Source of the DNA: Deltaproteobacteria bacterium | GTDB lineage: Bacteria; UBA10199; JACPAL01; GCA-016699445 | Assembly (NCBI GenBank): GCA_016699445.1 | Contig: CP064976.1 | Location: 1,618,952 to 1,682,951, forward strand | Reading direction: 5' to 3' | DNA: 64,000 bases | Shown here: positions 6,442 to 54,047 of the stretch, piece after piece | Position numbering within the stretch: position 1 is the first letter of the stretch | Layout of the letters: each line of letters begins with the position of its first letter | Notes under the pieces: generated by a model | Databases searched by the model: none | The model's input: the letters and a program-made list of their open reading frames with translations, nothing else | What the model was told of the DNA's origin: nothing | Position numbers and translations under genes: made by a program

Positions 6442-7239
6442 ATGAATACAGATATGTATAGTAACTGGTTTCAGGTCACTGGTCTGAGTGTTGCGACGTC
6501 CGATATTACTCAACAGGCTTTTAAACTGCCAGTGTATGCACCCTATATACAAGATAACTATCATGATATTCCGAGCTATACGGCTACAGAAAGAGCTCTG
6601 GCTTTGGCCGTACGTTTACAAGAATTGTTGGGAACTCCGAAACTTACCGCTTCTAATAATGGGTTTTTGTGTCAATACCGTTTAATGGGATCTTTGAGTT
6701 CTTTAGAGATAGCTTTTGAGGGGAGTGGAAACAAATGGCAGATTAATAGTGGCCATACTATTTTCGTAGGAATGACTCTAGCCGTGAGTCCAGATTTATC
6801 GACTCACACTAAAGCCTCCTTAGATGCGATGATGATTTCAGCCAAAGTGCTCTATCAATTGTTATGTGATCATCATTTGATCGTGAGTGATAGGGATCAG
6901 TTCAAACTCAAAGATCCTCAGCTTAAGGAAACTATCCAGTCTGAAGCCTGGACACGATTTCTCACAGGTTTAGGTTATGTTGCCCCAACAATAAAGAGTG
7001 TTGATAGTTATCCCAGGGATGGGAAGTGGGCTGATTTTTATGACTCCATGTTCACTCTTGCGAATGAGCTATATTCCAATCGTTGGAAAGATATAAAGCC
7101 ATTTATGGACGCGGCAGCTCAAAACCCTCAGCAATTACACGCTCTCTTTTCAATCATGAATTCTGAATATGGTGGAAATCGTGACGTCCAAGTACTTAAA
7201 AATAAGTTGATAAGAGCTGGCTTGATAAGTTTCGAATAA
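6442..7239 (+). CDS. Hypothetical protein, 265 aa
   Basis: This is a long ORF with coding-like composition. No motif was recognised. Confidence 0.4.
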   Translation: MNTDMYSNWFQVTGLSVATSDITQQAFKLPVYAPYIQDNYHDIPSYTATERALALAVRLQELLGTPKLTASNNGFLCQYRLMGSLSSLEIAFEGSGNKWQINSGHTIFVGMTLAVSPDLSTHTKASLDAMMISAKVLYQLLCDHHLIVSDRDQFKLKDPQLKETIQSEAWTRFLTGLGYVAPTIKSVDSYPRDGKWADFYDSMFTLANELYSNRWKDIKPFMDAAAQNPQQLHALFSIMNSEYGGNRDVQVLKNKLIRAGLISFE

Positions 7240-7307
7240 TATTCTTGAGCTGAACCAGATGGTAGTCCATTTCTTGACAAGGACAGTGCGCGTCATTACG
7301 AGGCCGC

Positions 7308-8699
7308 ATGGCTCAAAAAAATAAATCTCAAAAATGGTCTGGACGTTTTGCTCAAGGGTTGGATCCCTTAGCCCTCGATTTTACTCAATCTATTTCCTTT
7401 GATCAGAAGCTTTATTATTATGATGTGAAGGGGAGTTTGGCCCATGCCAAGATGTTGCAGAAGGTCGGGATTCTCACCAAAAAAGACTATGATGATATTC
7501 GTCGTGGGCTGACCTCGATTGTGGATGATCTTCAGCAGGGGAAATTCGAATTTAAAGAAGAATTAGAAGACGTACATCGCAATATTGAAACAGAATTGAT
7601 CAAACGCATTGGGGCTGCTGGTGGCAAACTGCATACAGCCCGTAGTCGCAATGATCAAGTGGCTTTGGATTTTAGGCTCTACTGTCGTGATCGAGTGATG
7701 GAGCTGCATGATTCGATCCTAGAGCTCGAAGAAGCTTTTGTTGTGAAAGCGGAAGAGTTTCCTGAAGTCGTCATGCCTGGATATACTCATCTTCAAAGGG
7801 CTCAACCGGTACTCTTTGCACATCATCTTTTAGCTTACGTAGAAATGTTGGAAAGAGATCGTGAGCGTTTGCAGGATCTTTATAAGCGCGTCGATACCTT
7901 GCCTTTAGGTTCTGGGGCGATCGCGGGAACGACATTTCCAATCGATCGAGAATTTGTTGCTAAAGAATTAGGGTTTGGTCGTGTCTCACATAATAGTATG
8001 GATGCTGTTTCGGATCGGGATTTTGCGATTGAGATTGCGTCGGCGGGATCGATTCTCATGATGCATTTGTCTCGTTTGAGTGAAGAAATGATTTTGTGGT
8101 CGTCGTCTGAGTTTGATTTTATCAAATTGCCCGAATCCTTTTGCACAGGTTCTTCGATGATGCCCCAGAAAATGAATCCCGATGTTCCTGAGTTAATTCG
8201 TGGAAAAACAGGTCGTGTGTATGGGTCTTTGGTGTCTCTTTTAACGACAATGAAGAGTTTGCCTCTGGCCTACAATAAAGACATGCAGGAAGATAAAGAA
8301 CCGATTTTTGATGTGTTTGAGACGGCTATTAATTGTGTTGATGTATTGGTGCCGGTAGTTTTGGGGATGAGACCCAAAGAAGACAAGATGAATATTGCGG
8401 TCTCAGATGGTGGTTTGTTGGCAACCGAAATTGCGGATTGGTTGGTGACGCAAGGAGTGGATTTTAGATCGTCGCATGAAGTGACAGCGCAAGTCGTGCG
8501 GTATTCTTTAGAAACTAAAAAAGATATTACCGAAATGTCGCTGCAAGAATTTCAAAAGTTTTCAGGAAAATTTAACGAGAAAATTTTTGATGTATTGACG
8601 GTGAAAGCAGCAGTAGATCGAAGACGTTCTTTGGGTGGAACGTCGGGTGTGAATGTTAAAAAAGAAATTAAACGAATAAAGAAAGTTATCGAATCATGA
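7308..8699 (+). CDS. argH: Argininosuccinate lyase
   Basis: Fumarate-lyase signature regions are present ([12 protein letters not shown]) in a 463-aa protein. The gene overlaps lysA by 4 bp (ATGA). Confidence 0.9.
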
Positions 8700-9924
8700 A
8701 CCACTTTAATTACAAAAAAAACGAACTGTATTGCGAGGATGTTTCTTTAGCACGCATTGCTCAAGAAGTAGGGACTCCAGCTTATGTCTATAGCTATGCA
8801 ACACTGACACGTCACTTTGATGTGTTTGATAAAGCTTTTGGAAAGCTGCCACATCTGGTGTGCTTTGCGATGAAGGCTAATTCCAATATTGCTATTCTTA
8901 GAGCTCTTATCAATCGGGGAGCGGGGATTGATATTGTTTCTGAGGGGAACTTTTCCGTGCACGAACAGCAGGAGCTCCAGCAAATAAAATTGTTTATTCA
9001 GGTGTTGGAAAAACACGCGAAGAAATGGCCTATGCTCTTAAAGAAGGTATTTTACAGTTTAATATCGAATCTGAAGAAGAGGTCTTTGTTTTAAATGAGG
9101 TGGCGACAAGTTTGGGTCTCAAAGCTCCTGTGTCGTTTCGGGTGAATCCGAATATTAATCCCAAAACACATCCATATATTTCGACGGGATTGAAGAAGAG
9201 TAAGTTTGGTGTGCCTTTTGAACGGGCGATTGAGATTTATGAAAAAGCACGCAAGCTTCCTGGAATTTCTGTCCAAGGCGTGAGCTGTCATATTGGATCG
9301 CAGATTACAATTCTGACGCCGTTTCGGGATGCTTTAGCTAAAGTCAGTGTCTTGGTGGCTGAGCTGCGCAAGCGGGGTTTTGATATTCGTCGTGTAGATT
9401 TGGGTGGAGGTTTGGGGATTCCTTATAAAAATGACAAAGTACCCAGCCCCAAACAGTACGCAGATATTTTGAAAAAAGGGATTAAAGAATTAGGCTGTAC
9501 GGTCATGTTTGAACCGGGTCGTGTGATTGTTGGAAATGCGGGGATCTTGCTGACGAAAGTGATGTATAAAAAAACGAGTGGGAAAAAGACGTTTGTGATT
9601 ATTGATGGAGCCATGAATGATTTGATTCGGCCCGCTTTGTATGGATCTCATCATGAAATTTTGCCAGTACAAAGAAGAAAGGCCACAATGAAAGCTGATA
9701 TTGTGGGCCCTGTATGTGAGTCGGGAGATTTTTTTGCGGAAAATAGATCGTTCCCTGCTTTAAATTCAGATGATCTTTTAGCTGTGATGAGTGCTGGTGC
9801 TTATGGGTCTGTGATGTCGTCTAATTATAATTCACGGCCTTTAGTGGCAGAAGTGATGGTAAATGGAAATGAATTTCACGTTGTTCGGCAAAGACAGGAA
9901 TATAAAGATTTATTACGTGGTTAA
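8696..9924 (+). CDS. lysA: Diaminopimelate decarboxylase, split by an apparent single-base frameshift in a G4 run at ~8944-8947
   Basis: The N-terminal part reads ..AGIDIVSEG in one frame. The rest ([41 protein letters not shown]..) reads in the -1 frame, and one extra G restores continuity. Confidence 0.85.
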
Positions 9925-26192: not shown

Positions 26193-27415
26193 ATGAAACA
26201 TGAAGTGATCGTTCCCTCTGCGGGAGAGTCAGTGAGTGAAGTTTTTATTGCGGGTTGGAGAAAGAAAAGCGGGGATCTTGTCAAAAAAGATGAAATTCTC
26301 GTGGATCTAGAAACCCAAAAAGCTTCCTTTGAGCTTCAATCTGAATTTGGTGGTCGCTTGGAAGTTTTGTTTCCCAACAATGATACCAAAGTAAAGCCAG
26401 GAGATGTGATTGCTTATGTGGATGATGGCCCTGGTGCTCAGGATACAGCTTCTGTTTCTTCAGAACCAGTAGCGAAAACTTCAAGCTCTTTTGAAGTGGA
26501 ACAAGCTGTGAGCCCTGCAGCGCGCAAAATGGCTGCTGAAAAAAATGTTAATTTAGCTTCCGTGCAAGGTACCGGTAAAAGTGGTGTGATCTTAAAAGAA
26601 GATATTCAAAGAGCTGCCGAAGCTCCTCAAAAGTGGCGGCTCAACCTGCTCCAACGCCATCAGCCACTTCCCAGTCGACAGTTCTCAATTATCAAATCGA
26701 CGAATCTCGTGGAGAGAGACGGGTGCCGGCCTCGCGCATTCGTAAGCAGATTGCGATGAATTTGGTGGCAGCCCAACATACAGCGGCCATTCTGACGACG
26801 TTTAATGAAGTGGATATGACGCAGGTTTTGGAATTCAGGAAAAAATACAAAGATCAGTTTAAAGAAAAATATGGAGTGAACTTGGGGATGGTGAGTCCTT
26901 TTGCTCTAGCAACCGTTCGTGCGATCAAGATGTATCCTCAGGTGAATAATATTTTTACAGGAGAAGATATTATTCAAAGAGACTTTGTGGATCTTTCGAT
27001 TGCTGTCAGTACGGATAATGGTTTGGTGGTTCCTGTGCTTCGCAATGTGGATAAAATGAATGTAGCTTCATTTGAAAAAGGTCTTTCGGAGTTAGCGGAA
27101 AAAGCTCGTTCCCGAAAACTTTCCATTCCTGAAATGACGGGTGGAACATTTACCATTACCAATGGTGGTGTGTTTGGATCGTTGATTTCAACACCTATTC
27201 TCAACATGCCTCAGGCGGCGATTTTGGGACTTCACAAAACACAAGAGCGTCCTGTGGTGGTGGATAAGCAGATTGTTATTCGCCCTATGATGTATATGGC
27301 CCTTTCTTATGATCATCGGATTATCGACGGTCGTGAAGCTGTTGGATTTTTAGTGGCTATCAAGGAAGGTATTGAGAATTTGAGTTTGATTATTAATGAA
27401 AAGGAGCTTTTCTAA
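26193..27415 (+). CDS. sucB: Dihydrolipoyllysine-residue succinyltransferase (E2o), with an apparent 1-bp frameshift in an A4 run at ~26629-26632
   Basis: The lipoyl domain (..DLETQKASFEL..), the E3-binding domain (AVSPAARKMAAEKNVNLASVQGTGKSGVI) and the catalytic domain (..TTFNEVDM.., DHRIIDGREAV) are all present, with the catalytic domain in the -1 frame. Confidence 0.85.
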
Positions 27416-37796: not shown

Positions 37797-38758
37797 ATGA
37801 TTTCTACACATAAGGGAATGTGTCTTGTTTATCACCCTCGTATCAATCAAGGCAGTATGGCTCGTGTATATCGTGGGCGTTGGGAAATGGTGTGGAGACG
37901 CAAGATGTTGCCATAAAAATGGTCAATGTAGATCGTGAAAAAAATCCAGATCTTTATGCTCTTGTTGTTCAGAGGTTTGAACGGGAAGCTAAAGTTTTAG
38001 AATTGTTGTCGGGTGTTCCTTACATGATGAGGCTTGTGGATCATGGGTCGGATTCCTTGCTTGTGTGTTCTTTGGTGGAAGGGGAGAGTTTAATGAACTT
38101 TTCCAGAGAAAAAATGATGGTGAAAGATCAGGCCCAATTGGCTTTGAAAATTGTGGATGCTTTGATGGGAGCTCATCAACGGGGCATTGTGCATGGAGAT
38201 GTCAATTCCACCAATCTCATGGTGGCCGACAATTCACCTGTCTTCATCGATTTTAACCTGGCTCAAAATTATCCACCGACAGCTCAAGGCTTTGGCGGCA
38301 AGTTTTCCCGAAAAGCTTTTGAAGGAGCCCCTGGATATTTAGCGCCTGAAATGTTTTTGGGGAAAAGTGTGGGCCAATCTGTTGATTTAACATGGGAAAA
38401 CGCTGTGCAGGTGGATGTCTATGGTTTGGGGGCTGTGTTGTATCATTTGTTTACAGGCTATATCCCCTACATGGGGTTAGATTTTGTTCGTGATCTGCTC
38501 AGTCAAGAAGCCTTTCAAGAAGCCGTTAATGAAGAGGACCGTCGGCGCAAATTATTTAAACATGTGGCTGAGTTGATGAATGCCTGGGGTACGGTAACCA
38601 ATCCTGCCGACGTAAATTATGAATTGCCTATCGAAATTGGGAATATAATTTTAGAATTACTTAATAAAAATCCTTCCAACAGGCCGTCTCTTTTGCAGGT
38701 GAAAAAAGTTTTAAGTCATTGGGTTAAAACTTCAGACTCTTTCGAAGCCGTAGCCTAA
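37797..38758 (+). CDS. Atypical eukaryotic-like Ser/Thr protein kinase-like protein (possible pseudokinase), with an apparent 1-bp frameshift at an A3 run (~37885-37887)
   Basis: The Gly-loop (INQGSMARVYRGRWE) is encoded from the ATG at 37797 in one frame. The motifs VAIK, HGDVNSTN (degenerate catalytic loop), DFN (instead of DFG) and GAPGYLAPE read in the next frame, and one extra A joins them. Confidence 0.6.
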
Positions 38759-40372: not shown

Positions 40373-41647
40373 TCAACGGTTAGAATCTATTTGGAGTGCC
40401 TGAAAGGCTTGTTTCACTTGGTTGATATCGGGATAGCGCCCTGACGGAGTTTCTGAGAGATCTGTCGTGAGACATCTCGGGAGAAACGGTTTTAATTTTT
40501 CGGGAATATTGGAGAATTTTCGGTCCTGTGGATTTCTAAGAAAAAGATCCATGTGTTTTTGCAGCTGGGAGCCTGTGGCTTGATCAAATCCTCGAAAATA
40601 AAGTTTCTCAAACAGTGTGACACCTAAGCTGTAAACATCCCCTTGGGGAGACCAAAGAAATTTTTTGTTTTTAAATTCAGGATTTCCTGAATTAATGATT
40701 TCACACTCTGCTTCCGGAGGGATATAGCCGATGGTTCCGATACGATGGTGTTGGGGTTCTTGAATCTGAAGATCACGTTCATAGACGGAAAGAGCAAAGT
40801 CACAGAGTTTGAAATTTTGGTTTGGAAAGATGAGAATATTTCCGGGCTTGATGTCTCGTAATATTAGGTGGGTGCGCGGGCTTAGTTCTCCTTCGTGGGC
40901 GGCGGCGTAGAGAGAAAGAATGGATCCTAAAGTGGCCCAATCTTCACTTTCTGTTCCCATCATAAATTTATCAAAACTTTGAAGGGCGCTCTCCATACAA
41001 ATATCAAATAAAAATGTATCGTTTGCGGAACTTTCTGTGCATCCTCCAAAATCAAGAGCTTTCACCACATGTGGACTTTCTGTCCCTAACGTCATCGCTA
41101 GTTCCATCCAAAAGCCATAGGCTGGAATCACCTTGAGGTTGAGATCAGATCTTTTGAAACGTTTAATGGCTATTTCCCGATCAGAGTTTTCCCAAAGAGA
41201 GACTTCCGAAGAGCTATGAGGCCCTTCATGAATTGTTTTTGTTTTTGAAAAATCCTTCTTAATAAAAGGAGAATCCTGGGTCCCTTCTAAAATAGCCTTA
41301 AGACGTGATAGTACTTCATCAGAATTTTCTCCTATCAAGCCACAATGTTTGAAGGCAGCTCGGTTTCCTCTTAAGACAGCTTCAGGAGATACGTTATCAT
41401 CCGGAGTGAATTGATGGGCACGATTTAAGACTTTCAATCTGTGTTGAAGATCTTTTAAAAACTGAGCTCCTTGTTCACACGAAGCATCCAGATATTGAGC
41501 TGTAGAGACTGCTTGCTGGTAATAAGTATTGAGCAAACCATCATAATCAATGGCGCCAATATTTCGAGGCGCAGGGGAAGAATCCGTCATCCACGGAAAT
41601 TGTTTTTGGAGGGCGACAAATTGTTGAGTTAGGACCGAAGTATCCAT
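40373..41647 (-). CDS. Atypical eukaryotic-like Ser/Thr kinase-like protein with a ~140-aa N-terminal extra domain
   Basis: The motifs REIAIKRF (VAIK-like), LILRDIKPGNIL (catalytic loop), KLCDFALS (DFA in place of DFG), GTIGYIPPE and DVYSLGVTLFE are present. Confidence 0.65.
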   Translation of the reverse strand: MDTSVLTQQFVALQKQFPWMTDSSPAPRNIGAIDYDGLLNTYYQQAVSTAQYLDASCEQGAQFLKDLQHRLKVLNRAHQFTPDDNVSPEAVLRGNRAAFKHCGLIGENSDEVLSRLKAILEGTQDSPFIKKDFSKTKTIHEGPHSSSEVSLWENSDREIAIKRFKRSDLNLKVIPAYGFWMELAMTLGTESPHVVKALDFGGCTESSANDTFLFDICMESALQSFDKFMMGTESEDWATLGSILSLYAAAHEGELSPRTHLILRDIKPGNILIFPNQNFKLCDFALSVYERDLQIQEPQHHRIGTIGYIPPEAECEIINSGNPEFKNKKFLWSPQGDVYSLGVTLFEKLYFRGFDQATGSQLQKHMDLFLRNPQDRKFSNIPEKLKPFLPRCLTTDLSETPSGRYPDINQVKQAFQALQIDSNR

Positions 41648-41686: not shown

Positions 41687-42262
41687 TTATTGACGGCAAA
41701 GAATAAAATATTGTCCGATCGATTTTCCTTTTTTGGTCGCTTCGCCAATAAAGACGTTTTTGGACACACGTCGCAGGTAGTCCTTCATATACCCATAAAC
41801 CAACTTTGTGAGTCCGGTTTCGTTGGATTTAATTTCCGGCCAGCCAGCGACATTTTCTTTGGGAAGTCGGGTGTAGTCCACCATGATTTCCCCTGGGCGA
41901 TCAGTAGCCTCATCAATCACAAAACATCCAGGACCTGTGATTTTTTGGAATGTCTGAAAATTATACCCCCACACTTTAGATCCATCCCCCGATCCAGAAA
42001 GAGCCATTCTTTTTTGAAAAGTTGAAAAAAGAGGAAGTGAATTTTTCCCGTAAAAAATGACTTCCTGCAAAGGTTTAGCATCGGAGGGCATCAAGTCTGA
42101 AAATTTCAAATCAGGAGTCGCGATTTGAAAAAGACAAGATTGAAACTTCCCTCCGACACTATTGATTTCCTTTAATCGATCTTCGTGACTCAACCCATCC
42201 AAAAAAGCCCCAATACTTTTTTGTGATTTCCCTGCCTTAATCATCTCAAGAAGCGACGACAT
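41687..42262 (-). CDS. Hypothetical protein, 191 aa
   Basis: An ORF with no recognised motif. Confidence 0.4.
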   Translation of the reverse strand: MSSLLEMIKAGKSQKSIGAFLDGLSHEDRLKEINSVGGKFQSCLFQIATPDLKFSDLMPSDAKPLQEVIFYGKNSLPLFSTFQKRMALSGSGDGSKVWGYNFQTFQKITGPGCFVIDEATDRPGEIMVDYTRLPKENVAGWPEIKSNETGLTKLVYGYMKDYLRRVSKNVFIGEATKKGKSIGQYFILCRQ

Positions 42263-42307: not shown

Positions 42308-43732
42308 TTATTTTTTCATCGACTCAATTAAAATCTTTGCCACTTCAGGTCGGGAAAATTCCACAGGAGGCAATGTACCTTGAGTTAAGAGCTCGCGGAC
42401 CTTGGTGCCTGAAAGTGTGACGCGGTCTTCTGCAGCGTGAGGACAGGTTTTGTTAGAAGCCATGCCTTCGCATTTTTTGCAGAAGAAAGTGTGGTCAAAG
42501 AAAAGAGGTGTGATGCCGATTTCTTCCGGTGTGAATTCATTAAAAATGAAGTGAGCATCGAAAGTGCCATAGTAATTACCCACACCGGCATGATCACGAC
42601 CAACGATAAAATGTGTGCAGCCATAATTTTTGCGGATCAAGGCATGGAAGATCGCTTCACGAGGTCCAGCATAGCGCATGGACGCAGGATTGACCGCCAA
42701 AACTGTACGATCCATAGGGTAATAATCTTTAAGCAAAACTTCATAACATTTCATACGCACGTCTGCAGGAATATCATCACCTTTGGTATCTCCCACGAGC
42801 GGGTGGATCAAAAGACCATCACAGATTTCCAAAGCGACTTTGGTCAAATATTCATGAGCACGGTGGATTGGATTGCGCGTTTGAAAAGCGACAATACGCT
42901 TCCATTTTTTTTCTACAAAAAGAGCACGCAGAGCTGAGGGATCTAATCTTTGAGGAAGAAAATCAGAATAGCTCACACGATTGAGAACTTCGACTTTTCC
43001 ACCCAAGTAGACGTCGCCTTGTTTTTTGACGACGGCCACGCCGGGATGAGCCTCTTCAGTGGTTTTGTAAACTTTTTGGCATTCGAGCTCTTTTTGAGCC
43101 AAATATTTTTCTTCCAAAAGAAGAACAGCCAATTCTTTGCCGGTTTCGTCTGTGAGTAAAATGGGTTTCCCAATGGCAAATTTTTCAGCCTCTTCTTTGC
43201 TCACAGCCAGAGTAATGGGAATCGTCCAAGGAGCCCCGTTGGCTAAGTGCATATTATTAACAACACCCAAATAATCTTTTTCCCCCATAAATCCTTCAAG
43301 AGGTGAGAGGGCGCCGCAAGCGATCATATCCAGATCACTTTTTTCACGAGAACCGAGAACGATCTTCGGAAGACTGGCTGCTTGTGAAAGCCATTGAGAA
43401 CGTTTTTGGGAATCAACCACGCGGTTGATCAGAGTGCCACCATGAGCTTCGATAGGCGCTCCACCCGCAATCGCTGGCACGATGGATAATTCATCGCCTG
43501 CTTTGACGGGTGTGGCTTCGCCATTGAGGAAACGGATATCTTCGTTGTTCACATAAAAATTAATGAAGCGGCGTAATCCACCTTTTTCATCATAGAGACG
43601 CTCTTTGATGCCGGGGTATTGTTTCTCTAAATCCGCCAAGAGGTCTTTGACGCTCGCGCCAGCAGCGGAGACTTCGCCTAAGTTGGCGGTGATTTTTTGT
43701 AGGGGTGTGGGGATGCGGACTTTGATCGACAT
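42308..43732 (-). CDS. sat: Sulfate adenylyltransferase (ATP sulfurylase) with an in-frame N-terminal MoaD/ThiS-like ubiquitin-fold sulfur-carrier domain ending in Gly-Gly
   Basis: Residues 1-91 (MSIKVRIP...KAGDELSIVPAIAGG) resemble MoaD, including a C-terminal ..GG. They are followed directly by the canonical Sat N-terminus APIEAHGGTLINRV, then QTRNPIHRAHE and GRDHAG, for 474 aa in total. Confidence 0.85.
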   Translation of the reverse strand: MSIKVRIPTPLQKITANLGEVSAAGASVKDLLADLEKQYPGIKERLYDEKGGLRRFINFYVNNEDIRFLNGEATPVKAGDELSIVPAIAGGAPIEAHGGTLINRVVDSQKRSQWLSQAASLPKIVLGSREKSDLDMIACGALSPLEGFMGEKDYLGVVNNMHLANGAPWTIPITLAVSKEEAEKFAIGKPILLTDETGKELAVLLLEEKYLAQKELECQKVYKTTEEAHPGVAVVKKQGDVYLGGKVEVLNRVSYSDFLPQRLDPSALRALFVEKKWKRIVAFQTRNPIHRAHEYLTKVALEICDGLLIHPLVGDTKGDDIPADVRMKCYEVLLKDYYPMDRTVLAVNPASMRYAGPREAIFHALIRKNYGCTHFIVGRDHAGVGNYYGTFDAHFIFNEFTPEEIGITPLFFDHTFFCKKCEGMASNKTCPHAAEDRVTLSGTKVRELLTQGTLPPVEFSRPEVAKILIESMKK

Positions 43733-43742
43733 ATATTTCTCC

Positions 43743-44204
43743 TTAAATTATTTTTTTTTGGTTGTAACCTTTCAGGGATTCGTCCCAGAAAAATTCGTTA
43801 ATTTCTTTTAACTCTCTGTTGTAAATCGATACCACTAAATACGAAATGCCGGGATAGCTGGGCTCTCCCCACGGAGCGGCGACTAGGCGATCTTCTTCTG
43901 AAAAATAAGCGTCGTGCTCGCAATGTGAATGGTAAATACATTTCACTTCTTGTCTGTTTTTTTCAGCTTCATCAAAAATACGCTGCTGTTCTTTTGGATC
44001 AATCAAGTAGGCAGTTTTAGCAGTGCGTGGGTATTGATCCGGATATTTTTCATGCATGTCGTTATAAATATTTTTGATCGGAATAAATTCCGCCACAGAC
44101 TCTTGACCTTTGTCTCCAATTAACAATCCACAGGATTCGTCAGGCCAATGTTTTTTGGCGTAAGCGACAATCGTCTCAATTGTTTTATCGCAAATAATCG
44201 TCAT
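43743..44204 (-). CDS. JAMM/MPN+ metalloprotease (Mec+/CysO-hydrolase-like)
   Basis: The JAMM motif HSHCEHDAYFSEED (H-x-H-x7-S-x2-D) and the upstream conserved Glu (ESCG) are present in a 153-aa protein. Confidence 0.8.
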   Translation of the reverse strand: MTIICDKTIETIVAYAKKHWPDESCGLLIGDKGQESVAEFIPIKNIYNDMHEKYPDQYPRTAKTAYLIDPKEQQRIFDEAEKNRQEVKCIYHSHCEHDAYFSEEDRLVAAPWGEPSYPGISYLVVSIYNRELKEINEFFWDESLKGYNQKKII

Positions 44205-45103
44205 ACTTCAAAATACCTCTCTCCATGATCACAAAAAATGGTGACGATGGTGCCTTCCTGAATTTTTTCAGCCACGCGTAGCGCCGCGGCCATATTGCCT
44301 CCTGAAGAATGACCCACAATCAAGCCTTCTTCATGAGCGAGGCGTTCTGACATATCGTAAGCAGGCTCGGTTTCCATCGAAATCTTTTGATCTAACTCAT
44401 TTTCTTTATAAATCCCAGGCACGATCGATGACGCCATATGCTTCATACCTTCAAGCCCATGCATGGCATTGTCGGGCTCCACAGCAATGACTTGAATGTT
44501 TTTGTTATAATCTTTTAACCGTCGACCCGTTCCCATCACCGTGCCACCTGTACCAATACCTGCTATGAAGTGGGTGACTTGATGATCTGTTTGTTCCCAA
44601 ATTTCAACGCCTGTACTGTCATAATGAGCGCGTGGGTTGAATTCGTTGTTATATTGATCCGGCATAAAATAACGATCGGGATTTTCTTTTAGAAGTTTTC
44701 GTGCGAGCAAAATCGCTCCATCAGAACCTTCCATCGGCGAGGAATAAATAATATTCGATCCAAAAGTTGTCACAATAAGCTTGCGCTGAGGACTGACGTT
44801 TTCGGGCATGACGAGATCGATCTTGATCCCCATGGCCGCTCCGATCATCGCGTAGGCCACACCCGTATTCCCAGAAGTGGAATCCAACACCGTCTTCTCT
44901 TTTGTCAATTTTCCTGATTTCAAACCTTCTTGAATCATGCGTAAAGCCGGACGATCTTTGATTGAACCACCGGGATTAAAATACTCAAGCTTGGCATAGA
45001 TCTTCACTTTGCCCGATTGGATTTGAGGCAATTCTTTCCCAACCTCGCGAATGCGTACGAGTGGAGTGTTTCCAATTTTTTCTAGAATGGAATGGATCAG
45101 CAT
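44201..45103 (-). CDS. cysM: CysM-type cysteine synthase B / O-phosphoserine sulfhydrylase-like PLP enzyme
   Basis: The motifs GNTPLVRI, NPGGSIKDRPA (PLP Lys), TSGNTGVAYA and GIGTGGT are present in a 300-aa protein. The gene overlaps the JAMM gene by 4 bp. Confidence 0.8.
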   Translation of the reverse strand: MLIHSILEKIGNTPLVRIREVGKELPQIQSGKVKIYAKLEYFNPGGSIKDRPALRMIQEGLKSGKLTKEKTVLDSTSGNTGVAYAMIGAAMGIKIDLVMPENVSPQRKLIVTTFGSNIIYSSPMEGSDGAILLARKLLKENPDRYFMPDQYNNEFNPRAHYDSTGVEIWEQTDHQVTHFIAGIGTGGTVMGTGRRLKDYNKNIQVIAVEPDNAMHGLEGMKHMASSIVPGIYKENELDQKISMETEPAYDMSERLAHEEGLIVGHSSGGNMAAALRVAEKIQEGTIVTIFCDHGERYFEV

Positions 45104-45122
45104 AACATCACGTGAGAGAAGA

Positions 45123-45458
45123 TTAAGACTCCATCACACTAATCTCAATGGGCTCGACCTTCACACCACGTTTGCGAAAATAGGCAAAAGCTTTGTCGAG
45201 AACACTGACGGGCGCTTCGAGCTCAAGTGCGATCAGCCCGAGATTGTCACTGACAGAAGCTGAGCGAATGTTGAAACGCACTTTATAGAGATCATACATA
45301 TCGCAGATAATAGCTTCTTTGGTTTGGCGTTCTGGAAAGGTCACATAGACTTTGCGGCGGACCACAGGGTCTTTGTTTGTACTTGTTGTTTTTTTTGAAG
45401 CCATAATGTCTCCAGTTTGATGGTTCGACAAGCTCACCATGTCCTTGATGAGTGACAC
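45123..45458 (-). CDS. Small protein resembling a NIL domain (MetN C-terminal-like ferredoxin-fold sulfur-amino-acid-associated domain)
   Basis: The pattern ..EAIICDMYDLYKVRFNIRSASVSDNLGLIALELEAPVSVLDKAFAYFRKRGVKVEPIE resembles the NIL domain. The true start may be the internal MASKK at 45404. Confidence 0.35.
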   Translation of the reverse strand: MSLIKDMVSLSNHQTGDIMASKKTTSTNKDPVVRRKVYVTFPERQTKEAIICDMYDLYKVRFNIRSASVSDNLGLIALELEAPVSVLDKAFAYFRKRGVKVEPIEISVMES

Positions 45459-45490
45459 CCTGAGGCTGTCGAAGGGTTTAGTTTACTTTT

Positions 45491-46717
45491 TCAATGCAGC
45501 ATCCACCTCATCAATTCGGGGTTGATGATCGTTGGTTTGCCGACATGTCCTGTCATGGCTTCCTGGGTTTTGAGGCCATTGCCAGTGATACAGATGACGA
45601 CCGATTCATCTTTTTTAATTTTACCCAGCTTGATTAATTTCTTAGCCACACCCGTGGTGACGCCACCAGCTGTCTCAGTAAAGATACCTTCGGTTTCACC
45701 CAAAAGTTTAATCGCTTCGACAATTTCTTCATCGGACACATCTTCACTCCAGCCCCCTGTTTCTTTCATCGACTGCATGGCGTAAAAACCATCGGCTGGA
45801 TTTCCAATCGCTAGCGACTTGGCGATGGTGTTGGGTTTGACCGGTTTGAAAAGTTCCCAATCATTTTTTAAGGCTGTTGCAATGGGCGAACATCCCGTGG
45901 CTTGAGCCCCGTGGACTTTGCATTTTGGGTCGGTATTGTCAGTAAGGAGGCCGATCTTATGAAACTCCTTCATCGCTTTATGGACTTTGGTTAAAAGAGA
46001 TCCACTGGCCATCGGCACGACGACGTGATTAGGCACTTTCCATCCCAACTGCTCCATCATTTCATAAGCCAATGTTTTGGATCCTTCAGCGTAGTAAGGG
46101 CGGATGTTGATATTGACGAAAGCCCATTTATACTTGGCTCCGATTTCACTGCAGAGACGATTGACTTCATCGTAGGTGCCGCGAATGCCAATCACGTTAG
46201 CCCCATAGACAAGGGTGCCCAAGACTTTACCTGCTTCCAAATCATAAGGAATAAAGACGTAACATTCGAGTCCCGCTGAGGCAGCATTGGCCGCGACAGA
46301 GTTGGCGAGATTTCCCGTCGACGCGCACGAGACGGTTTTAAAACCAAACTCTTTGGCTTTTGAAAGTGCGACAGAAACCACACGATCTTTAAATGAAAGA
46401 GTGGGGTAGCAAACAGCATCGTTTTTAACCCAAACTTCTTTGACGCCTAAAGCTTTCGCCAAATTTTTAGCAGGAACCAATGGTGTGTATCCTGCGAGAA
46501 CTCCCACGGTAGGATCTTTTTCGATAGGAAGAAGCTCTCGGTAACGCCACATGGTTTGAGGACGCTTTTCAATTTTTTCTCGTGTGAGAGATTTGGCAAT
46601 CTGGTCGTAATTGTAATCCACTTCCAGAGGACCAAAACAAAATTCACAGACATGAGTGGGTGCGATCGGAAAATGATGACCACACTCGCGACACTTAAGA
46701 CCTTTTATGTATGACAT
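45491..46717 (-). CDS. Threonine-synthase-family PLP enzyme with an N-terminal Cys4 zinc ribbon
   Basis: The ribbon is KCRECGHH..CEFCFG. The ThrC PLP-lysine motif TLSFKDRVVS and Gly-rich loops are present. The ORF track extends to 46774 and overlaps the upstream gene. Confidence 0.8.
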   Translation of the reverse strand: MSYIKGLKCRECGHHFPIAPTHVCEFCFGPLEVDYNYDQIAKSLTREKIEKRPQTMWRYRELLPIEKDPTVGVLAGYTPLVPAKNLAKALGVKEVWVKNDAVCYPTLSFKDRVVSVALSKAKEFGFKTVSCASTGNLANSVAANAASAGLECYVFIPYDLEAGKVLGTLVYGANVIGIRGTYDEVNRLCSEIGAKYKWAFVNINIRPYYAEGSKTLAYEMMEQLGWKVPNHVVVPMASGSLLTKVHKAMKEFHKIGLLTDNTDPKCKVHGAQATGCSPIATALKNDWELFKPVKPNTIAKSLAIGNPADGFYAMQSMKETGGWSEDVSDEEIVEAIKLLGETEGIFTETAGGVTTGVAKKLIKLGKIKKDESVVICITGNGLKTQEAMTGHVGKPTIINPELMRWMLH

Positions 46718-46727
46718 ATATTTGCTC

Positions 46728-47527
46728 CTAATGAATAAATTTCTTCTGCAAACTAAAATATCTTTCTCCGCCATCGGGAAAGACAGTGACGACAGTTTTA
46801 TTTTTATCTATTTGCTGAGCGATCTGACGACTCGCCACAAAAGCGGCTCCGCACGAGATGCCCACCAGCAAACCTTCTTTTTGAGCGACTTCACGAGCGC
46901 CTAAAAAAGCTTCTTCATCGGTGATCGTGATGATCTCATCCACCAAAGAACGATCCAAGATCGTGGGAACAAATCCCGGGCCGATTCCTTGAATCTTATG
47001 ATGCCCCACTTTCCCTTGGCTGAGAGTCGGTGACGCAGCGGGTTCTACCGCAATGATTTTGGTTCCGTTCTTCTTTAAAATTTGAGCCGCTCCCATCAGC
47101 GTCCCGCTCGTTCCGATACCGGCGACGAAAAAATCGATCGGTTTCCCGAGATCCTTTTGAATCTCCTGAATTGTCTGATGATGCGCTTTGGGCGTTTCTT
47201 CATTTTCAAACTGATCAAAAAAATACGCGTCTGTTTTTTGGCATAATTCTTTGGCCCGATCGAGAGCGCCTTTATCCCAATATAAGCCAATCCAATCCCC
47301 GAATTTCCCGTCGTCGCGGCCACAATAGTGCCGCGAGCCGCGAGCCGCGAGCTCTTCTCCGCTTTCTCTAGAAGGTGTATGACAACTCGATCTTTAACCG
47401 AACCACCTGGATTATACTTCTCCAGCTTGGCATACACGGACGCACACCCCTCTGGCAGGCTTTTACTCAGCCTTAAAAGGGGGGTATTTCCAATGGCTTC
47501 AAGCAACGATTCCATAATAAGATCCAC
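46728..47527 (-). pseudogene. O-acetylserine sulfhydrylase (CysK/MccA-like) pseudogene with an internal ~115-bp out-of-frame deletion
   Basis: The N-terminal 110 aa (..NPGGSVKDR..TTGNSGIGLAYIG) and the C-terminal ~200 aa (DKGALDRAKEL..FVAGIGTSGTL..GIGPGF..) are CysK-like but lie in different frames. About 39 aa of the conserved core (..YKL.LTMPE..ERR.LL.A.GA.LVLT..) is absent between them. A (ccgcgag)x3 heptamer tandem sits at 47331-47351. Confidence 0.7.
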
Positions 47528-47531
47528 AAAT

Positions 47532-47700
47532 AAAAAAACCTCTTCCAGATAAGAAGAGGTGTGATTGAAGGTCTCTTCTCATCTGTCCCCATCTGCATTT
47601 AACTGCAGGGTTGGAGTTAGCACCATTTCTCCTTTTTTTTAGGAGACGGTTGCTGTGACGTCTTAGGGCCTTTCCCTCGGTCACTCTTGATAAGGTGCCG
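47532..47700 (-). ncRNA. SAM-I (S-box) riboswitch with an intrinsic terminator expression platform
   Basis: The minus-strand RNA reads CACCUUAUCAAGAGUGACCGAGGGAAAGGCCCUAAGACGUCACAGCAACC..GGAGAAAUGGUGCUAACUCCAACCCUGCAGUUAAAUGCAGAUGGGGACAGAUGAGAAGAG. This matches the S-box core (UUAUCAAGAG.G..GAGGGA..GGCCC.A.GA..GCAACC, AUGGUGCUAA.UCC..CUGCAG, GAUGAGAG). A CCUCUUC/GAAGAGG hairpin plus U7 follows at 47532-47559, immediately upstream of the cysK-like start. Confidence 0.8.
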
Positions 47701-51528: not shown

Positions 51529-51987
51529 ATGAGTCCGGGGGGAACTGTGAGTGACTGGAAAGTTTTACTCGTTGATGACGAAAAAGATTTTTGGGAAGAT
51601 CTCTATGATCGTCTATCCGTTGTCTTCGGAAAGATGAATGTTCTGATTGCTTCTTCCGGTGAAGAGGCTCTTCAAATTCTCAAAAATCAACCTATTGGTG
51701 TGATCCTTTCGGATCAACGCATGCCAGGTGTTTCGGGTCATGAATTATTAGAAGAAGTCTCACGACGTTGGCCTGATGTTGTGCGAATACTTCTGACAGC
51801 ATTTCCTGATATCAGATCTGCCAAAGACTCTGTGAATAAAGGTGAAATTTATCAGTATGTTTCAAAAAGCACATCTTTGTCGGAAATTGAATCTTTAGTG
51901 AAAAGTGGTTTGCAGAAGTTTGAGTCGGATGAAAAGACGTCAGCTTTTGAAGGAAAAACAGGAGTTTTTGAAAAAGCTTTATATTGA
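51529..51987 (+). CDS. Response-regulator receiver domain, probably the N-terminal part of a REC-PP2C protein
   Basis: The receiver motif is VLLVDDEKD..LSDQRMPGVSGHEL. Its 3' end overlaps the PP2C ORF in another frame. Confidence 0.6.
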   Translation: MSPGGTVSDWKVLLVDDEKDFWEDLYDRLSVVFGKMNVLIASSGEEALQILKNQPIGVILSDQRMPGVSGHELLEEVSRRWPDVVRILLTAFPDIRSAKDSVNKGEIYQYVSKSTSLSEIESLVKSGLQKFESDEKTSAFEGKTGVFEKALY

Positions 51988-52687
51988 AGAGCATCTTCTT
52001 CCAGAATCGACTCCCAAAATACCCGGCCTCTATTTCGATTCTTACTATCAATCGGCTCAGGAAGTCGGAGGCGATTATTTTGATTTTATCGAAATTGATG
52101 AACGTTATTTAGGTATTGTGGTGGCAGATGTTTCGGGAAAAGGGTTGGAGAGTTCGATGTTGATGTCGATTGTCTGTCATGCCTTGAGGTCTCAGGCAGG
52201 ATTGAGTTTGTCTCCTCGAGAGGTCATTGATGAGACTGAAGGTCTTCTTCTTCCCAAGCTTGGACAAAATCACTTTGTCACACTTTTTTATGCAATTTTG
52301 GATCGCAAGAAGATGACACTCAAGTGTTCTAATGCTGGTCATCCTCCATTGCTCGTTGGAAACCGTATAACAGGAAAAACTCATTGGGTTCGGCCCAAGG
52401 GTGTGGCTTTGGGGCTTAGTCGTTTTCAAAGAATTACTGTCAGGGAAGAGTGTGAGGTTTCACTAAATCCAGGAGATTTTCTTTTTTTCTATACAGATGG
52501 TGTGACGGAAGCTCGTAATAGCGATGATGATTGTTTTGGTCGTAAACGTTTGGAAACATTTTTCTCCGAAACTTCCCGAGAGAAAATTCAAATCATTCAT
52601 GAGTTAAAAACAGAATTAGAAAATTTTGCAGAAGGTGCCCCACAGCAAGATGACGTGACGGCGGTCTATCTAGAAAGGTGTGCGTAG
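51929..52687 (+). CDS. PP2C/SpoIIE-family Ser phosphatase (RsbU/RsbP-like)
   Basis: The motifs EVGGDYFDF, VADVSGKGL, FYTDGVTEA and DDVTAVYL are present. It may be fused to the upstream receiver through a frameshift. Confidence 0.7.
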   Translation: MKRRQLLKEKQEFLKKLYIEEHLLPESTPKIPGLYFDSYYQSAQEVGGDYFDFIEIDERYLGIVVADVSGKGLESSMLMSIVCHALRSQAGLSLSPREVIDETEGLLLPKLGQNHFVTLFYAILDRKKMTLKCSNAGHPPLLVGNRITGKTHWVRPKGVALGLSRFQRITVREECEVSLNPGDFLFFYTDGVTEARNSDDDCFGRKRLETFFSETSREKIQIIHELKTELENFAEGAPQQDDVTAVYLERCA

Positions 52688-53051
52688 TATGTCTCATTTT
52701 GATGTCGAAGTTTTGTTTTCCGAAAATCAACCAAGTAAAGCTGTCTTGCGATTGGTTGGGAGTCTAGATGCATTTGCTCTTTCTCAGATTGAAAAGCGTA
52801 TCCAAACATTGATCCGTGATGAACAAAAAATAAAACTCGTCGTGGATTGCGGAAAACTCAAATTTATTTCTAGCCCCGGCTTAGGGCTTTTTTTGGGAAC
52901 TTTGAATGAGTTGGAAAAACGTGGTGGAAAATTAATTTTTTCCCAAGTCATCCACCCTGATGTGAATGATGCAATGAGCTGTCTGGGTTTTTTTGATATT
53001 TTTCAGGCTTATAACTCTGAAGAGGAAGCGTATCGACATTTGGATGATTAA
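52680..53051 (+). CDS. STAS-domain anti-sigma-factor antagonist (RsbV/SpoIIAA-like)
   Basis: A 123-aa protein with the phosphorylatable Ser region (FISSPGLGLF). Confidence 0.75.
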   Translation: MRSMSHFDVEVLFSENQPSKAVLRLVGSLDAFALSQIEKRIQTLIRDEQKIKLVVDCGKLKFISSPGLGLFLGTLNELEKRGGKLIFSQVIHPDVNDAMSCLGFFDIFQAYNSEEEAYRHLDD

Positions 53052-54047
53052 ATGATGAATACCGAACAAAATTACCCTGAAGAAATGAAGATTTTTTGCG
53101 ACACAGAGTGTCTCGAAAAAGTACGAGATTTTGTTCGCTCTCAGGCGATAGCTGCGGGTCTTCCTCAAAAAGAAATTGGAAAACTAGTTTTAGCGGCGGA
53201 TGAAGCTTCCTCCAACATTGTCAAACATGCCTACCGCTTTCAATCAGGACATAATATTTATGTCAGTTGGAAAGAAAATAACAATCAGGCTGTGATTGAG
53301 ATACGAGATGAGAGCGATCAGCCGTATTTACCTGAAGGTTCTGATTTTGATCTGGATACTAAGCTTAAGTACCGACATGTGAGTGGTTATGGGCATTATA
53401 TGCTCGATCAACTGGTAGATGATGTTCATTATGAAACAACTCCTGGCTCGCATAATAAGATCAGTCTGATTAAGTTTTTAAATCCTGATGCGGCACCTAA
53501 GGAAAAACCCAAAAAGAAAGATGCTAAAAAGCAGCTGGCTTTTTCTCTCAATGGAGTTTTGTCTTTAGCCAATCATTTGGCACAAGAAAGGCATCCGGAT
53601 ATTTTGGTTAAAATGTATTTGTATGGATTGATGGGATTGTTTTCGTCTTATCCCATTTCTATTTTAATTCCCAAAGGGAAGTCGGAGCCTTTTTATATGG
53701 CAGGGCAAGTGGGGCTTTCGAGTAAGATTTTGCCCAGTGAGATTCATATCCCACGTTATGGATGGCTTCCGGAGCGGTTGAGAATTGGTAAAGGGCCTTT
53801 GCTGGCGCACAGTCTCAAAAGCCAAGGCATTCAAGAAGAAGAAATGTCTGTCATCGATAAGATTCGAGCAGCCTTGGTAGTGCCTGTTTTTTTAAGAGAT
53901 CATCTAACTGCGATTGTGTGCTTGGGCCCCAAAAAGAATAAAGAATGTTTCTCCGAAACTGATGTCAACATCACTCAAATGATTACCGTCCATACTCTTC
54001 TCTTGTGGGAGAGAGCTTTGGAAAAACAGGTGAAGAAAAATCCCTAA
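53052..54047 (+). CDS. RsbW/SpoIIAB-like GHKL Ser kinase (anti-sigma-regulatory factor) fused to a C-terminal GAF-like domain
   Basis: The N-terminal ~150 aa carry an HATPase N-box (LAADEASSNIVKHAY) and G-box (SGYGHYML). The C-terminal ~170 aa resemble GAF (..ALVVPVFLRDHLTAIVCLGPKK..). Confidence 0.6.
   Translation: MMNTEQNYPEEMKIFCDTECLEKVRDFVRSQAIAAGLPQKEIGKLVLAADEASSNIVKHAYRFQSGHNIYVSWKENNNQAVIEIRDESDQPYLPEGSDFDLDTKLKYRHVSGYGHYMLDQLVDDVHYETTPGSHNKISLIKFLNPDAAPKEKPKKKDAKKQLAFSLNGVLSLANHLAQERHPDILVKMYLYGLMGLFSSYPISILIPKGKSEPFYMAGQVGLSSKILPSEIHIPRYGWLPERLRIGKGPLLAHSLKSQGIQEEEMSVIDKIRAALVVPVFLRDHLTAIVCLGPKKNKECFSETDVNITQMITVHTLLLWERALEKQVKKNP

Follow-up and report, generated by a model that had tools for sequence, protein, structure and literature searches.

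Results

A sulfur-carrier domain is fused in-frame to ATP sulfurylase

We analysed a 64,000-nucleotide (nt) stretch of a Deltaproteobacteria bacterium genome (GCA_016699445.1, contig CP064976.1, positions 1,618,952 to 1,682,951; hereafter the window), in which a single open reading frame (ORF) encodes a CysO/ThiS-type sulfur-carrier domain joined to an ATP sulfurylase (Sat). This ORF lies in a minus-strand operon that runs from an S-adenosylmethionine (SAM) riboswitch through cysK, a thrC-like gene, a gene for a small NIL-domain protein, cysM, a JAMM peptidase gene and carrier::sat to a gene for a conserved protein of 191 amino acids (aa) (Table 1). An initial annotation, made from the sequence alone, had described residues 1-91 of the ORF as a carrier ending in Gly-Gly, followed directly by the canonical Sat N-terminus and adjoined by a JAMM protease gene. 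The ORF itself, Pfam and NCBIfam assignments and a stop-free junction confirmed the in-frame fusion, and a Prok-JAB gene ends only 10 nt upstream of the fusion ORF.

Along the ORF, Pfam recognised ThiS (residues 5-91, E 6.4e-16), PUA_2 (94-252) and ATP-sulfurylase (262-470). The carrier domain scored 59.1 bits against PF02597 (cutoff 22.5), and among solved structures it is closest to M. tuberculosis CysO (3DWG_C, E 1.9e-20), to which it aligns end to end. On a hidden Markov model (HMM) of the carrier family it reached 158 bits, close to the median of 161 for stand-alone members (range 122-168). The Sat module scored 556.8 bits against the NCBIfam sulfate adenylyltransferase model NF003166 (cutoff 387) and 444.6 bits against TIGR00339 (cutoff 323), and contains the catalytic motifs QTRNPIHRAHE (HxxH) and GRDHAG (GRD). 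The protein is deposited at NCBI as QQR79521.1, where it is annotated only as 'sulfate adenylyltransferase'.

The junction peptide (..SIVPAIAGG-AP-IEAHGGTLINR) has no stop, and only Ala-Pro stands between the Gly-Gly and the conserved Sat N-terminus. G90 and G91, at the end of the AIAGG motif (residues 87-91), are nearly invariant in the family alignment; as translated, the protein has Gly91 in a peptide bond with Ala92, so that the carrier has no free C-terminal carboxylate. The first Met past the junction is M136, which makes a full-length separate Sat starting at an ATG impossible. An upstream in-frame GTG (Val86) may offer an alternative Sat start, with no convincing ribosome-binding site before it; translation from this codon would in any case leave the carrier without a stop. 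An AlphaFold2 (AF2) model of the fusion (mean predicted local distance difference test score, pLDDT, 90; predicted template modelling score, pTM, 0.78) contains two confident modules, with pLDDT of 82-97 for carrier residues 1-87 and values below 50 only at residues 88-98 (AIAGGAPIEAH). In this model the junction looks like an exposed, flexible tether between two folded modules.

Table 1 Features of the carrier::sat operon, in window coordinates
Feature	Position	Strand	Description
SAM riboswitch (S-box) aptamer	47576..47696	-	Rfam RF00162, 74.5 bits (gathering 44.4), E 1.6e-16
Terminator-like hairpin	47538..47560	-	Consensus scan only: 9-bp stem then TTTTTTATTT
cysK-like O-acetylserine sulfhydrylase, disrupted	46728..47527	-	Two ORFs, 143 + 122 aa; both Pfam PALP
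Threonine-synthase homologue with N-terminal Cys4 zinc ribbon	45491..46717	-	Pfam PALP + zinc ribbon; NCBIfam thrC
Small NIL-domain protein	45123..45458	-	Pfam NIL, E 2.1e-11
CysM-like pyridoxal phosphate (PLP) cysteine synthase	44201..45103	-	Pfam PALP; best NCBIfam cysM, 356.8 bits (below 394 cutoff)
JAMM/MPN+ metallopeptidase (Mec+/HcyD-like), proposed processing enzyme	43743..44204	-	Pfam Prok-JAB, E 6.3e-20, 71.6 bits (cutoff 25)
Carrier::Sat fusion ORF	42308..43732	-	474 aa, ATG start
CysO/ThiS-type sulfur-carrier (beta-grasp) domain	43460..43732	-	Residues 1-91 (91 codons), ending AIAGG; Pfam ThiS
Junction codons Ala92-Pro93	43454..43459	-	DNA GGT GGA GCG CCT ATC GAA; proposed scissile bond Gly91/Ala92
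Junction-spanning peptide of the fusion protein			AIAGGAPIEAHGG
ATP sulfurylase (Sat) module	42308..43453	-	Residues 94-474 + stop codon; Pfam PUA_2, ATP-sulfurylase; NCBIfam
Conserved 191-aa protein	41687..42262	-	No Pfam, NCBIfam or PDB match

An independent assembly confirms the fusion

Because lysA, sucB and cysK are frameshifted in the window assembly, the junction needed independent confirmation. Both lysA (diaminopimelate decarboxylase; 8700-9924, plus strand) and sucB (2-oxoglutarate dehydrogenase E2; 26193-27415, plus strand) are split by a frameshift, in sucB near an A-run, and such breaks in essential genes suggest indel errors in the assembly. At 51529-54047 the ORFs of a response regulator and a SpoIIE phosphatase overlap in different frames, which may reflect a further frameshift.

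Two independent contigs were available: L088, a 19-kb contig from another sample (Logan SRR12404947), and a third contig, ERR12160659. L088 is 98.6-99% identical to the window at the nucleotide level, has an identical JAMM protein and encodes the same 474-aa ORF and junction with 19 nt differences, in 17 synonymous and 2 non-synonymous codons; one of the synonymous changes sits two codons ahead of the Gly-Gly. In ERR12160659 the ORF that follows the JAMM gene continues for at least 171 aa, up to the end of the contig, and so has no stop after the Gly-Gly. A stop codon or frameshift at the junction, for which the initial annotation had proposed re-sequencing, is thus excluded by L088, and ERR12160659 is consistent with this. 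The carrier::Sat fusion is a genuine feature of the species. Given the frameshifts in the window, one might suppose that carrier and sat are separate genes in the true genome, but we regard this as extremely improbable: the junction is identical in L088 amid its 19 nt differences, the third contig agrees, and no stop or start remnant is left at a junction whose creation needs an 11-nt change and not a homopolymer slip.

The fusion is rare and probably arose twice

We searched other genomes for the same fusion, as had also been proposed, and found it in one other lineage. None of the 80 species-representative genomes with the most similar Sat has an in-frame carrier-Sat ORF, and none of the 80 loci returned by a junction-peptide scan of JGI metagenomes has the carrier fused to Sat; a degenerate DNA pattern for AIAGGxPIxAHGG had no match in the JGI metagenomes. 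The best 120 homologues of the carrier part comprised 118 stand-alone carriers, of 91-99 aa, and 2 tandem carriers. Searching for homologues with residues 1-162 returned stand-alone carriers only, the fusion being hidden in a 90% cluster behind a 385-aa Sat, and a representative search with residues 1-200 returned no carrier-Sat fusion, which is a weak negative since fusions can hide behind unfused representatives. QQR79521.1 itself links 92-aa carriers and 385-aa Sat proteins in one 90%-identity cluster, the representative of which is an unfused Sat. Other Sat candidates with N-terminal extensions turned out to be APS (adenosine 5'-phosphosulfate) kinase-Sat fusions or to carry unrelated sequence; L063, L085 and L024, found as tblastn matches from residues 69-87, are ordinary Sat genes with unrelated N-terminal extensions.

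The second fusion, P0278 (476 aa; locus L169), came from a further full-length search and lies in the same operon, with the junction AIAGG-SELP-IAAHGG, on a single 5.7-kb contig (GCA_020049755.1, JAHZTO010046189.1). The GGATCC (Gly-Ser) at this junction was considered as a cloning linker and rejected, since it is embedded in a complete natural operon. A neighbour-joining tree of Sat placed P0278 as sister to a group made up of the window protein, L021 and P0273, the latter two being unfused, and the Sat N-termini of L021 and P0273 (MKTPIPAHGG, MTKPIAAHGG) resemble those of the distant unfused P0279 and P0280 (MKTPI...). Because of this tree placement, the unfused-type N-termini of L021 and P0273 and the differing linkers, two independent fusions are probably the simplest history; alternatively, there may have been one ancient fusion followed by fissions.

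Where the carrier lies upstream of sat on the same strand, the gap between the two genes is 17, 61, 200, 406 or 448 nt or 1.1-3.3 kb, and the longer gaps hold a radical-SAM gene and a DASS sodium/anion symporter gene (L001-L005, L007). The radical-SAM protein found here in many relatives is variant_rSAM- or MSMEG_0568-like, below cutoffs, and the pair lies at 8276-10896 in L001, 8295-10994 in L004 and 1838-4422 in L007. L021, the nearest relative, has an ORF for a 445-aa ATPase-like protein between carrier and sat (6528-7991), with no family match; right after the carrier stop codon in L021 stand two copies of a partly palindromic motif, AAATTTGTCGATTAYCCACTCGACAAA, possibly the trace left by an insertion.

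Carrier and sat overlap in L009, where the carrier terminates in GGAQ-TGA, the sat GTG lies inside CAGTGA, and sat begins GTG-AAA-GCT-CCC-ATC, encoding (M)KAPIPAHGG. An 11-nt deletion (GCACAGTGAAA) in a junction of the L009 type yields GG-APIxAHGG, exactly the window junction. We therefore propose an ancestor in which carrier and sat were adjacent, their stop and start codons probably overlapping, and in which a short deletion would have removed the carrier tail, the carrier stop codon and the first sat codons, leaving one ORF for a carrier-Gly-Gly-Ala-Pro-Sat polyprotein.

A JAMM peptidase gene always accompanies the carrier

A Prok-JAB gene directly precedes the carrier at each locus that we inspected. 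The JAMM motif of the window protein is intact, PDESCG ... HSHCEHDAYFSEED, corresponding to E...HxHx7Sx2D. Among the stand-alone carriers, 111 of 118 (94%) have 1-8 residues after the Gly-Gly, and these tails are non-conserved (K, R, N, I, L, RG, AQ and others), with a variable first position. Trimming with little preference for the P1' residue is thus the norm in this family.

The carrier family also occurs in carrier-NIL, carrier-rhodanese, carrier-E1, E1-carrier and tandem architectures (P0122, P0164, P0265/P0205, P0234 and P0014/P0085/P0138; L113, L121, L133, L165). All architectures with an N-terminal carrier bury the Gly-Gly and would need processing.

The fusion is predicted to be a precursor cut after Gly-Gly

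A carrier needs a free Gly-Gly carboxylate and here has no stop codon, so it can work only if it is cut out. The explanation that we favour, and consider moderately probable, is that the fusion is a polyprotein precursor processed after the Gly-Gly by the adjacent JAMM peptidase. This enzyme would cut between Gly91 and Ala92 in the flexible junction, releasing a carrier whose Gly-Gly carboxylate is free, together with a Sat short of only its first few residues. An E1-like enzyme of the MoeZ type, encoded elsewhere, would then adenylate and thiocarboxylate the released carrier, and the thiocarboxylate would serve both the CysM-like and the MetM-like enzyme. Cleavage, protease identity and the chemistry that follows are all inferred. 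As processing would be obligatory already in relatives with short tails, exchanging a two-residue tail for Sat would come at little cost; the change is thus probably close to neutral, and its twofold and sporadic origin would be accounted for.

Several points weigh against this proposal. The 2-residue linker is very short, and access to the bond might be hampered by the folded Sat; signs of decay may be missing simply because the fusion is so recent; and the second fusion is known from its single short contig. Against the NCBIfam desampylase model the JAMM protein scores below the cutoff, its PDB relatives are only weak, and cleavage of this protein, as by this JAMM clade, is a prediction. No ThiF, E1 or MoeZ protein was found in the window among ORFs of at least 150 aa (a few, mostly overlapping, were skipped), on a contig of ~2.75 Mb; moeZ is also unlinked in M. 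tuberculosis (PMC3227635).

The strongest competitor, to which we assign a minor but appreciable chance, is that the protein stays uncleaved, as a Sat with an inert beta-grasp appendage, the carrier function having been lost or being supplied by a ThiS/MoaD paralogue elsewhere in the genome, and the fusion being a recent accident, tolerated while it heads for decay. Sat does accept natural N-terminal fusions, such as APS kinase-Sat (P0195, P0213), the fusion is limited to one species and one other contig, and the operon's first gene, cysK, is already broken in the window. The window and L088 are also too close for a strong test of selection on the 91 carrier codons. Against this, the carrier is conserved like Sat, and more so than JAMM and CysM, in the comparison with L021 (protein identity: carrier 93.4%, Sat 94.5%, JAMM 86.8%, CysM 90.0%; at the DNA level only ~76%), and its family-HMM score is normal. 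The carrier-dependent enzymes are intact, with synonymous to non-synonymous codon differences between strains of 1:0 for JAMM and 41:3 for CysM. No second carrier was found in the window, and the carrier is intact in both fusions, which are probably of separate origin. Judging by the codon counts (17:2 for the fusion ORF), the fusion, CysM and JAMM are under purifying selection between strains, and at the level of sequence the carrier domain shows no decay.

A further reading concerns neutrality and not cleavage. The fusion might have been selected because it places Sat under JAMM control, the enzyme being inactive or mis-assembled until release, and fixes carrier and Sat output at 1:1; it would then be a bacterial counterpart of the ubiquitin-ribosomal-protein fusions, evolved twice in one clade. 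We consider this doubtful.

Cleavage after the Gly-Gly by another protease, or by a different mechanism, is in our estimate unlikely. A precedent of sorts is M. tuberculosis MoaX, the protease of which was unidentified when its cleavage was shown (PMC4326299), but here a JAB gene invariably adjoins the carrier, in the window at a distance of 10 nt, and JAMM peptidases are the demonstrated processors of CysO, MetO, HcyS, QbsE and MoaD-MoaE (PMC8832034, PMC3227635, 10.1101/2024.10.14.618325).

Finally, the fusion could be functional as such, the tether coupling sulfate activation by Sat to carrier chemistry. Carrier and Sat both belong to sulfur assimilation and the fusion occurs in two lineages, but a Gly-Gly inside a peptide bond cannot be adenylated, and in most relatives a radical-SAM, DASS symporter or ATPase gene separates carrier and sat by up to 3.3 kb, so that there is no sign of a conserved physical partnership. 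APS is not known to be a substrate for carrier thiocarboxylation in any characterised ThiS, MoaD or CysO system. We hold such coupling to be very improbable. Of the two interpretations offered in the initial annotation, the JAMM-cut precursor, like the anatomy on which it was built, fits the evidence gathered here, and the channelling of activated sulfate to the carrier is without support.

The fusion lies in a SAM-riboswitch operon predicted to serve sulfur amino acid synthesis

The hairpin downstream of the aptamer is probably the expression platform of the riboswitch, as judged from its position and consensus structure. An RF00162 element also heads the operon in L012, L004, L011, L088, L169 and L021, and riboswitch and gene order recur together in these six loci. 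We infer from this gene content that the operon would make both cysteine and homocysteine by a SAM-controlled thiocarboxylate route that is tied to sulfate activation.

The intact cysK of L088 encodes 295 aa and reaches the NCBIfam cysK cutoff; relative to it, the window gene is missing 116 nt in one block as well as its stop codon, and the break may be either a strain pseudogene or an assembly error. The nearest solved structures of the ThrC-like protein are threonine synthases. By context alone (SAM riboswitch, carrier and JAMM), it is a candidate homocysteine synthase of the MetM type. The NIL gene occupies the same position in every related operon inspected and is called at 93 aa in L088, which places its probable start in the window near 45404. 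PDB matches of the CysM-like protein include M. tuberculosis CysM (3DWG_A). Homologues of the 191-aa protein directly follow Sat in L088, L021, L092 and L169 (where it is partial), and this protein may be an unrecognised member of the pathway.

A strain-divergent block spans ~44200-47270 of the window and 2901-6004 of L088, between flanks that are ~99-100% identical. Within it, identities to L088 are 90.8% for the 3' part of cysK, 96.2% for the metM-like gene and 95.1% for cysM, and the metM-like gene differs further by a 3-codon indel and a different C-terminus. The block suggests recombination or strain mixing within the operon. Genes for eukaryote-like Ser/Thr kinases flank the operon, at 37820-38758 (plus strand) and 40373-41647 (minus strand); the one after the 191-aa gene is syntenic in L021 and only 45% identical.

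Discussion

In our literature searches we came across no report of a carrier fused to ATP sulfurylase. The survey of Iyer et al. describes ThiS-ThiG, MoaD-MoaE, sulfite reductase-ThiS and ThiS-E1 fusions, with ATP sulfurylase only as an operon neighbour, and notes that beta-grasp sulfur carriers frequently occur joined to proteins acting in their own pathway (PMC1779556). No catalogued ThiS or MoaD fusion has an ATP sulfurylase partner. In the sulfite reductase-ThiS and E1-ThiS fusions the carrier is C-terminal, so that its Gly-Gly is free, unlike that of the fusion described here.

The closest counterparts are fusions of MoaD and MoaE. M. tuberculosis MoaX requires cleavage between Gly82 and Ser83 for activity (PMC4326299), the D. 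radiodurans JAMM peptidase DR0402 cleaves the MoaD-MoaE fusion DR2607 (PMC8832034), and HvJAMM1 and PfJAMM1 cleave linear ubiquitin-like (Ubl) fusions regardless of the downstream protein (PMC8832034). MoaX and DR2607 share with the present fusion an N-terminal beta-grasp carrier whose Gly-Gly is peptide-bonded to a downstream enzyme. Their partner, MoaE, is the carrier's own catalytic subunit, whereas Sat has no use for the carrier and catalyses a reaction several steps earlier; in the present fusion, moreover, the carrier is of the CysO type, the JAMM gene is adjacent and processing is predicted from the genes. The carrier::Sat fusion is a variant of this kind of linear carrier-enzyme fusion, outside the MoaD-MoaE family. 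The initial annotation had called the architecture unusual, which holds for Sat as a partner, given how rare the fusion is, but not for the kind of arrangement, as cleavage of MoaX and DR2607 at Gly-Gly is known.

In its gene content the operon resembles the cysteine pathway of M. tuberculosis, in which MoeZ thiocarboxylates CysO, CysM adds O-phosphoserine and the JAMM peptidase Mec+ hydrolyses CysO-Cys to release cysteine (PMC3227635): the carrier described here is nearest CysO, and a CysM-like gene and a JAMM gene are its neighbours. It differs from CysO/CysM/Mec+, HcyS/HcyD and QbsE/QbsD in that the 'tail' is a 383-residue enzyme, and in that the locus also holds ThrC-like, NIL, CysK and Sat genes and a SAM riboswitch, with no MoeZ gene in the window. 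HcyS (Krishnamoorthy & Begley 2011) and QbsE (Godert et al. 2007) reportedly have short post-Gly-Gly tails that are removed by JAMM enzymes.

A second route, outlined for Streptomyces albulus by Hasebe et al. 2024, is one in which the ThrC homologue MetM makes homocysteine from the MetO thiocarboxylate; in the same account MetO does not mature without Mec, and a SAM riboswitch precedes metM (10.1101/2024.10.14.618325; PMC12172450). The MetM/MetO/Mec/MoeZ system and the present operon, compared by context and not by sequence, both link a ThrC homologue to a carrier and a Mec-type peptidase, with a SAM riboswitch upstream. Unlike in S. albulus, a single carrier would here serve CysM-like and MetM-like enzymes alike.

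Ubiquitin precursors provide a more distant parallel. The eukaryotic genes UBA52 and RPS27A make ubiquitin as the N-terminal part of a ribosomal-protein fusion, from which it is released after Gly-Gly. The Caldiarchaeum pro-ubiquitin is processed by an Rpn11 homologue (PMC6043591). These precursors, like the carrier::Sat fusion, join an N-terminal Ubl to an unrelated housekeeping protein or a tail, and a peptidase of the deubiquitinase type frees it after Gly-Gly, as predicted for carrier::Sat. They are ancient and universally conserved, in contrast to the fusion reported here, which is young and sporadic and belongs to sulfur transfer and not to conjugation.

The principle is already known, in that Ubl carrier precursors are freed after Gly-Gly by JAMM peptidases even from a whole enzyme, and there is no sign of new chemistry; the fusion is rare, recent and explained by a trivial deletion. 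Clustering, together with annotation as Sat only, hides this fusion and some carriers from homology searches. If the predicted cleavage is true, a JAMM peptidase of the Mec+/HcyD type accepts a whole folded enzyme as leaving group; the MoaD-MoaE precedent would then also cover an unrelated partner, and the parallel to ubiquitin precursor processing would gain weight. The fusion would offer a ready natural substrate for assaying an uncharacterised JAMM clade, and it points to a widespread SAM-riboswitch operon that seemingly joins thiocarboxylate-based cysteine and homocysteine synthesis with sulfate activation.

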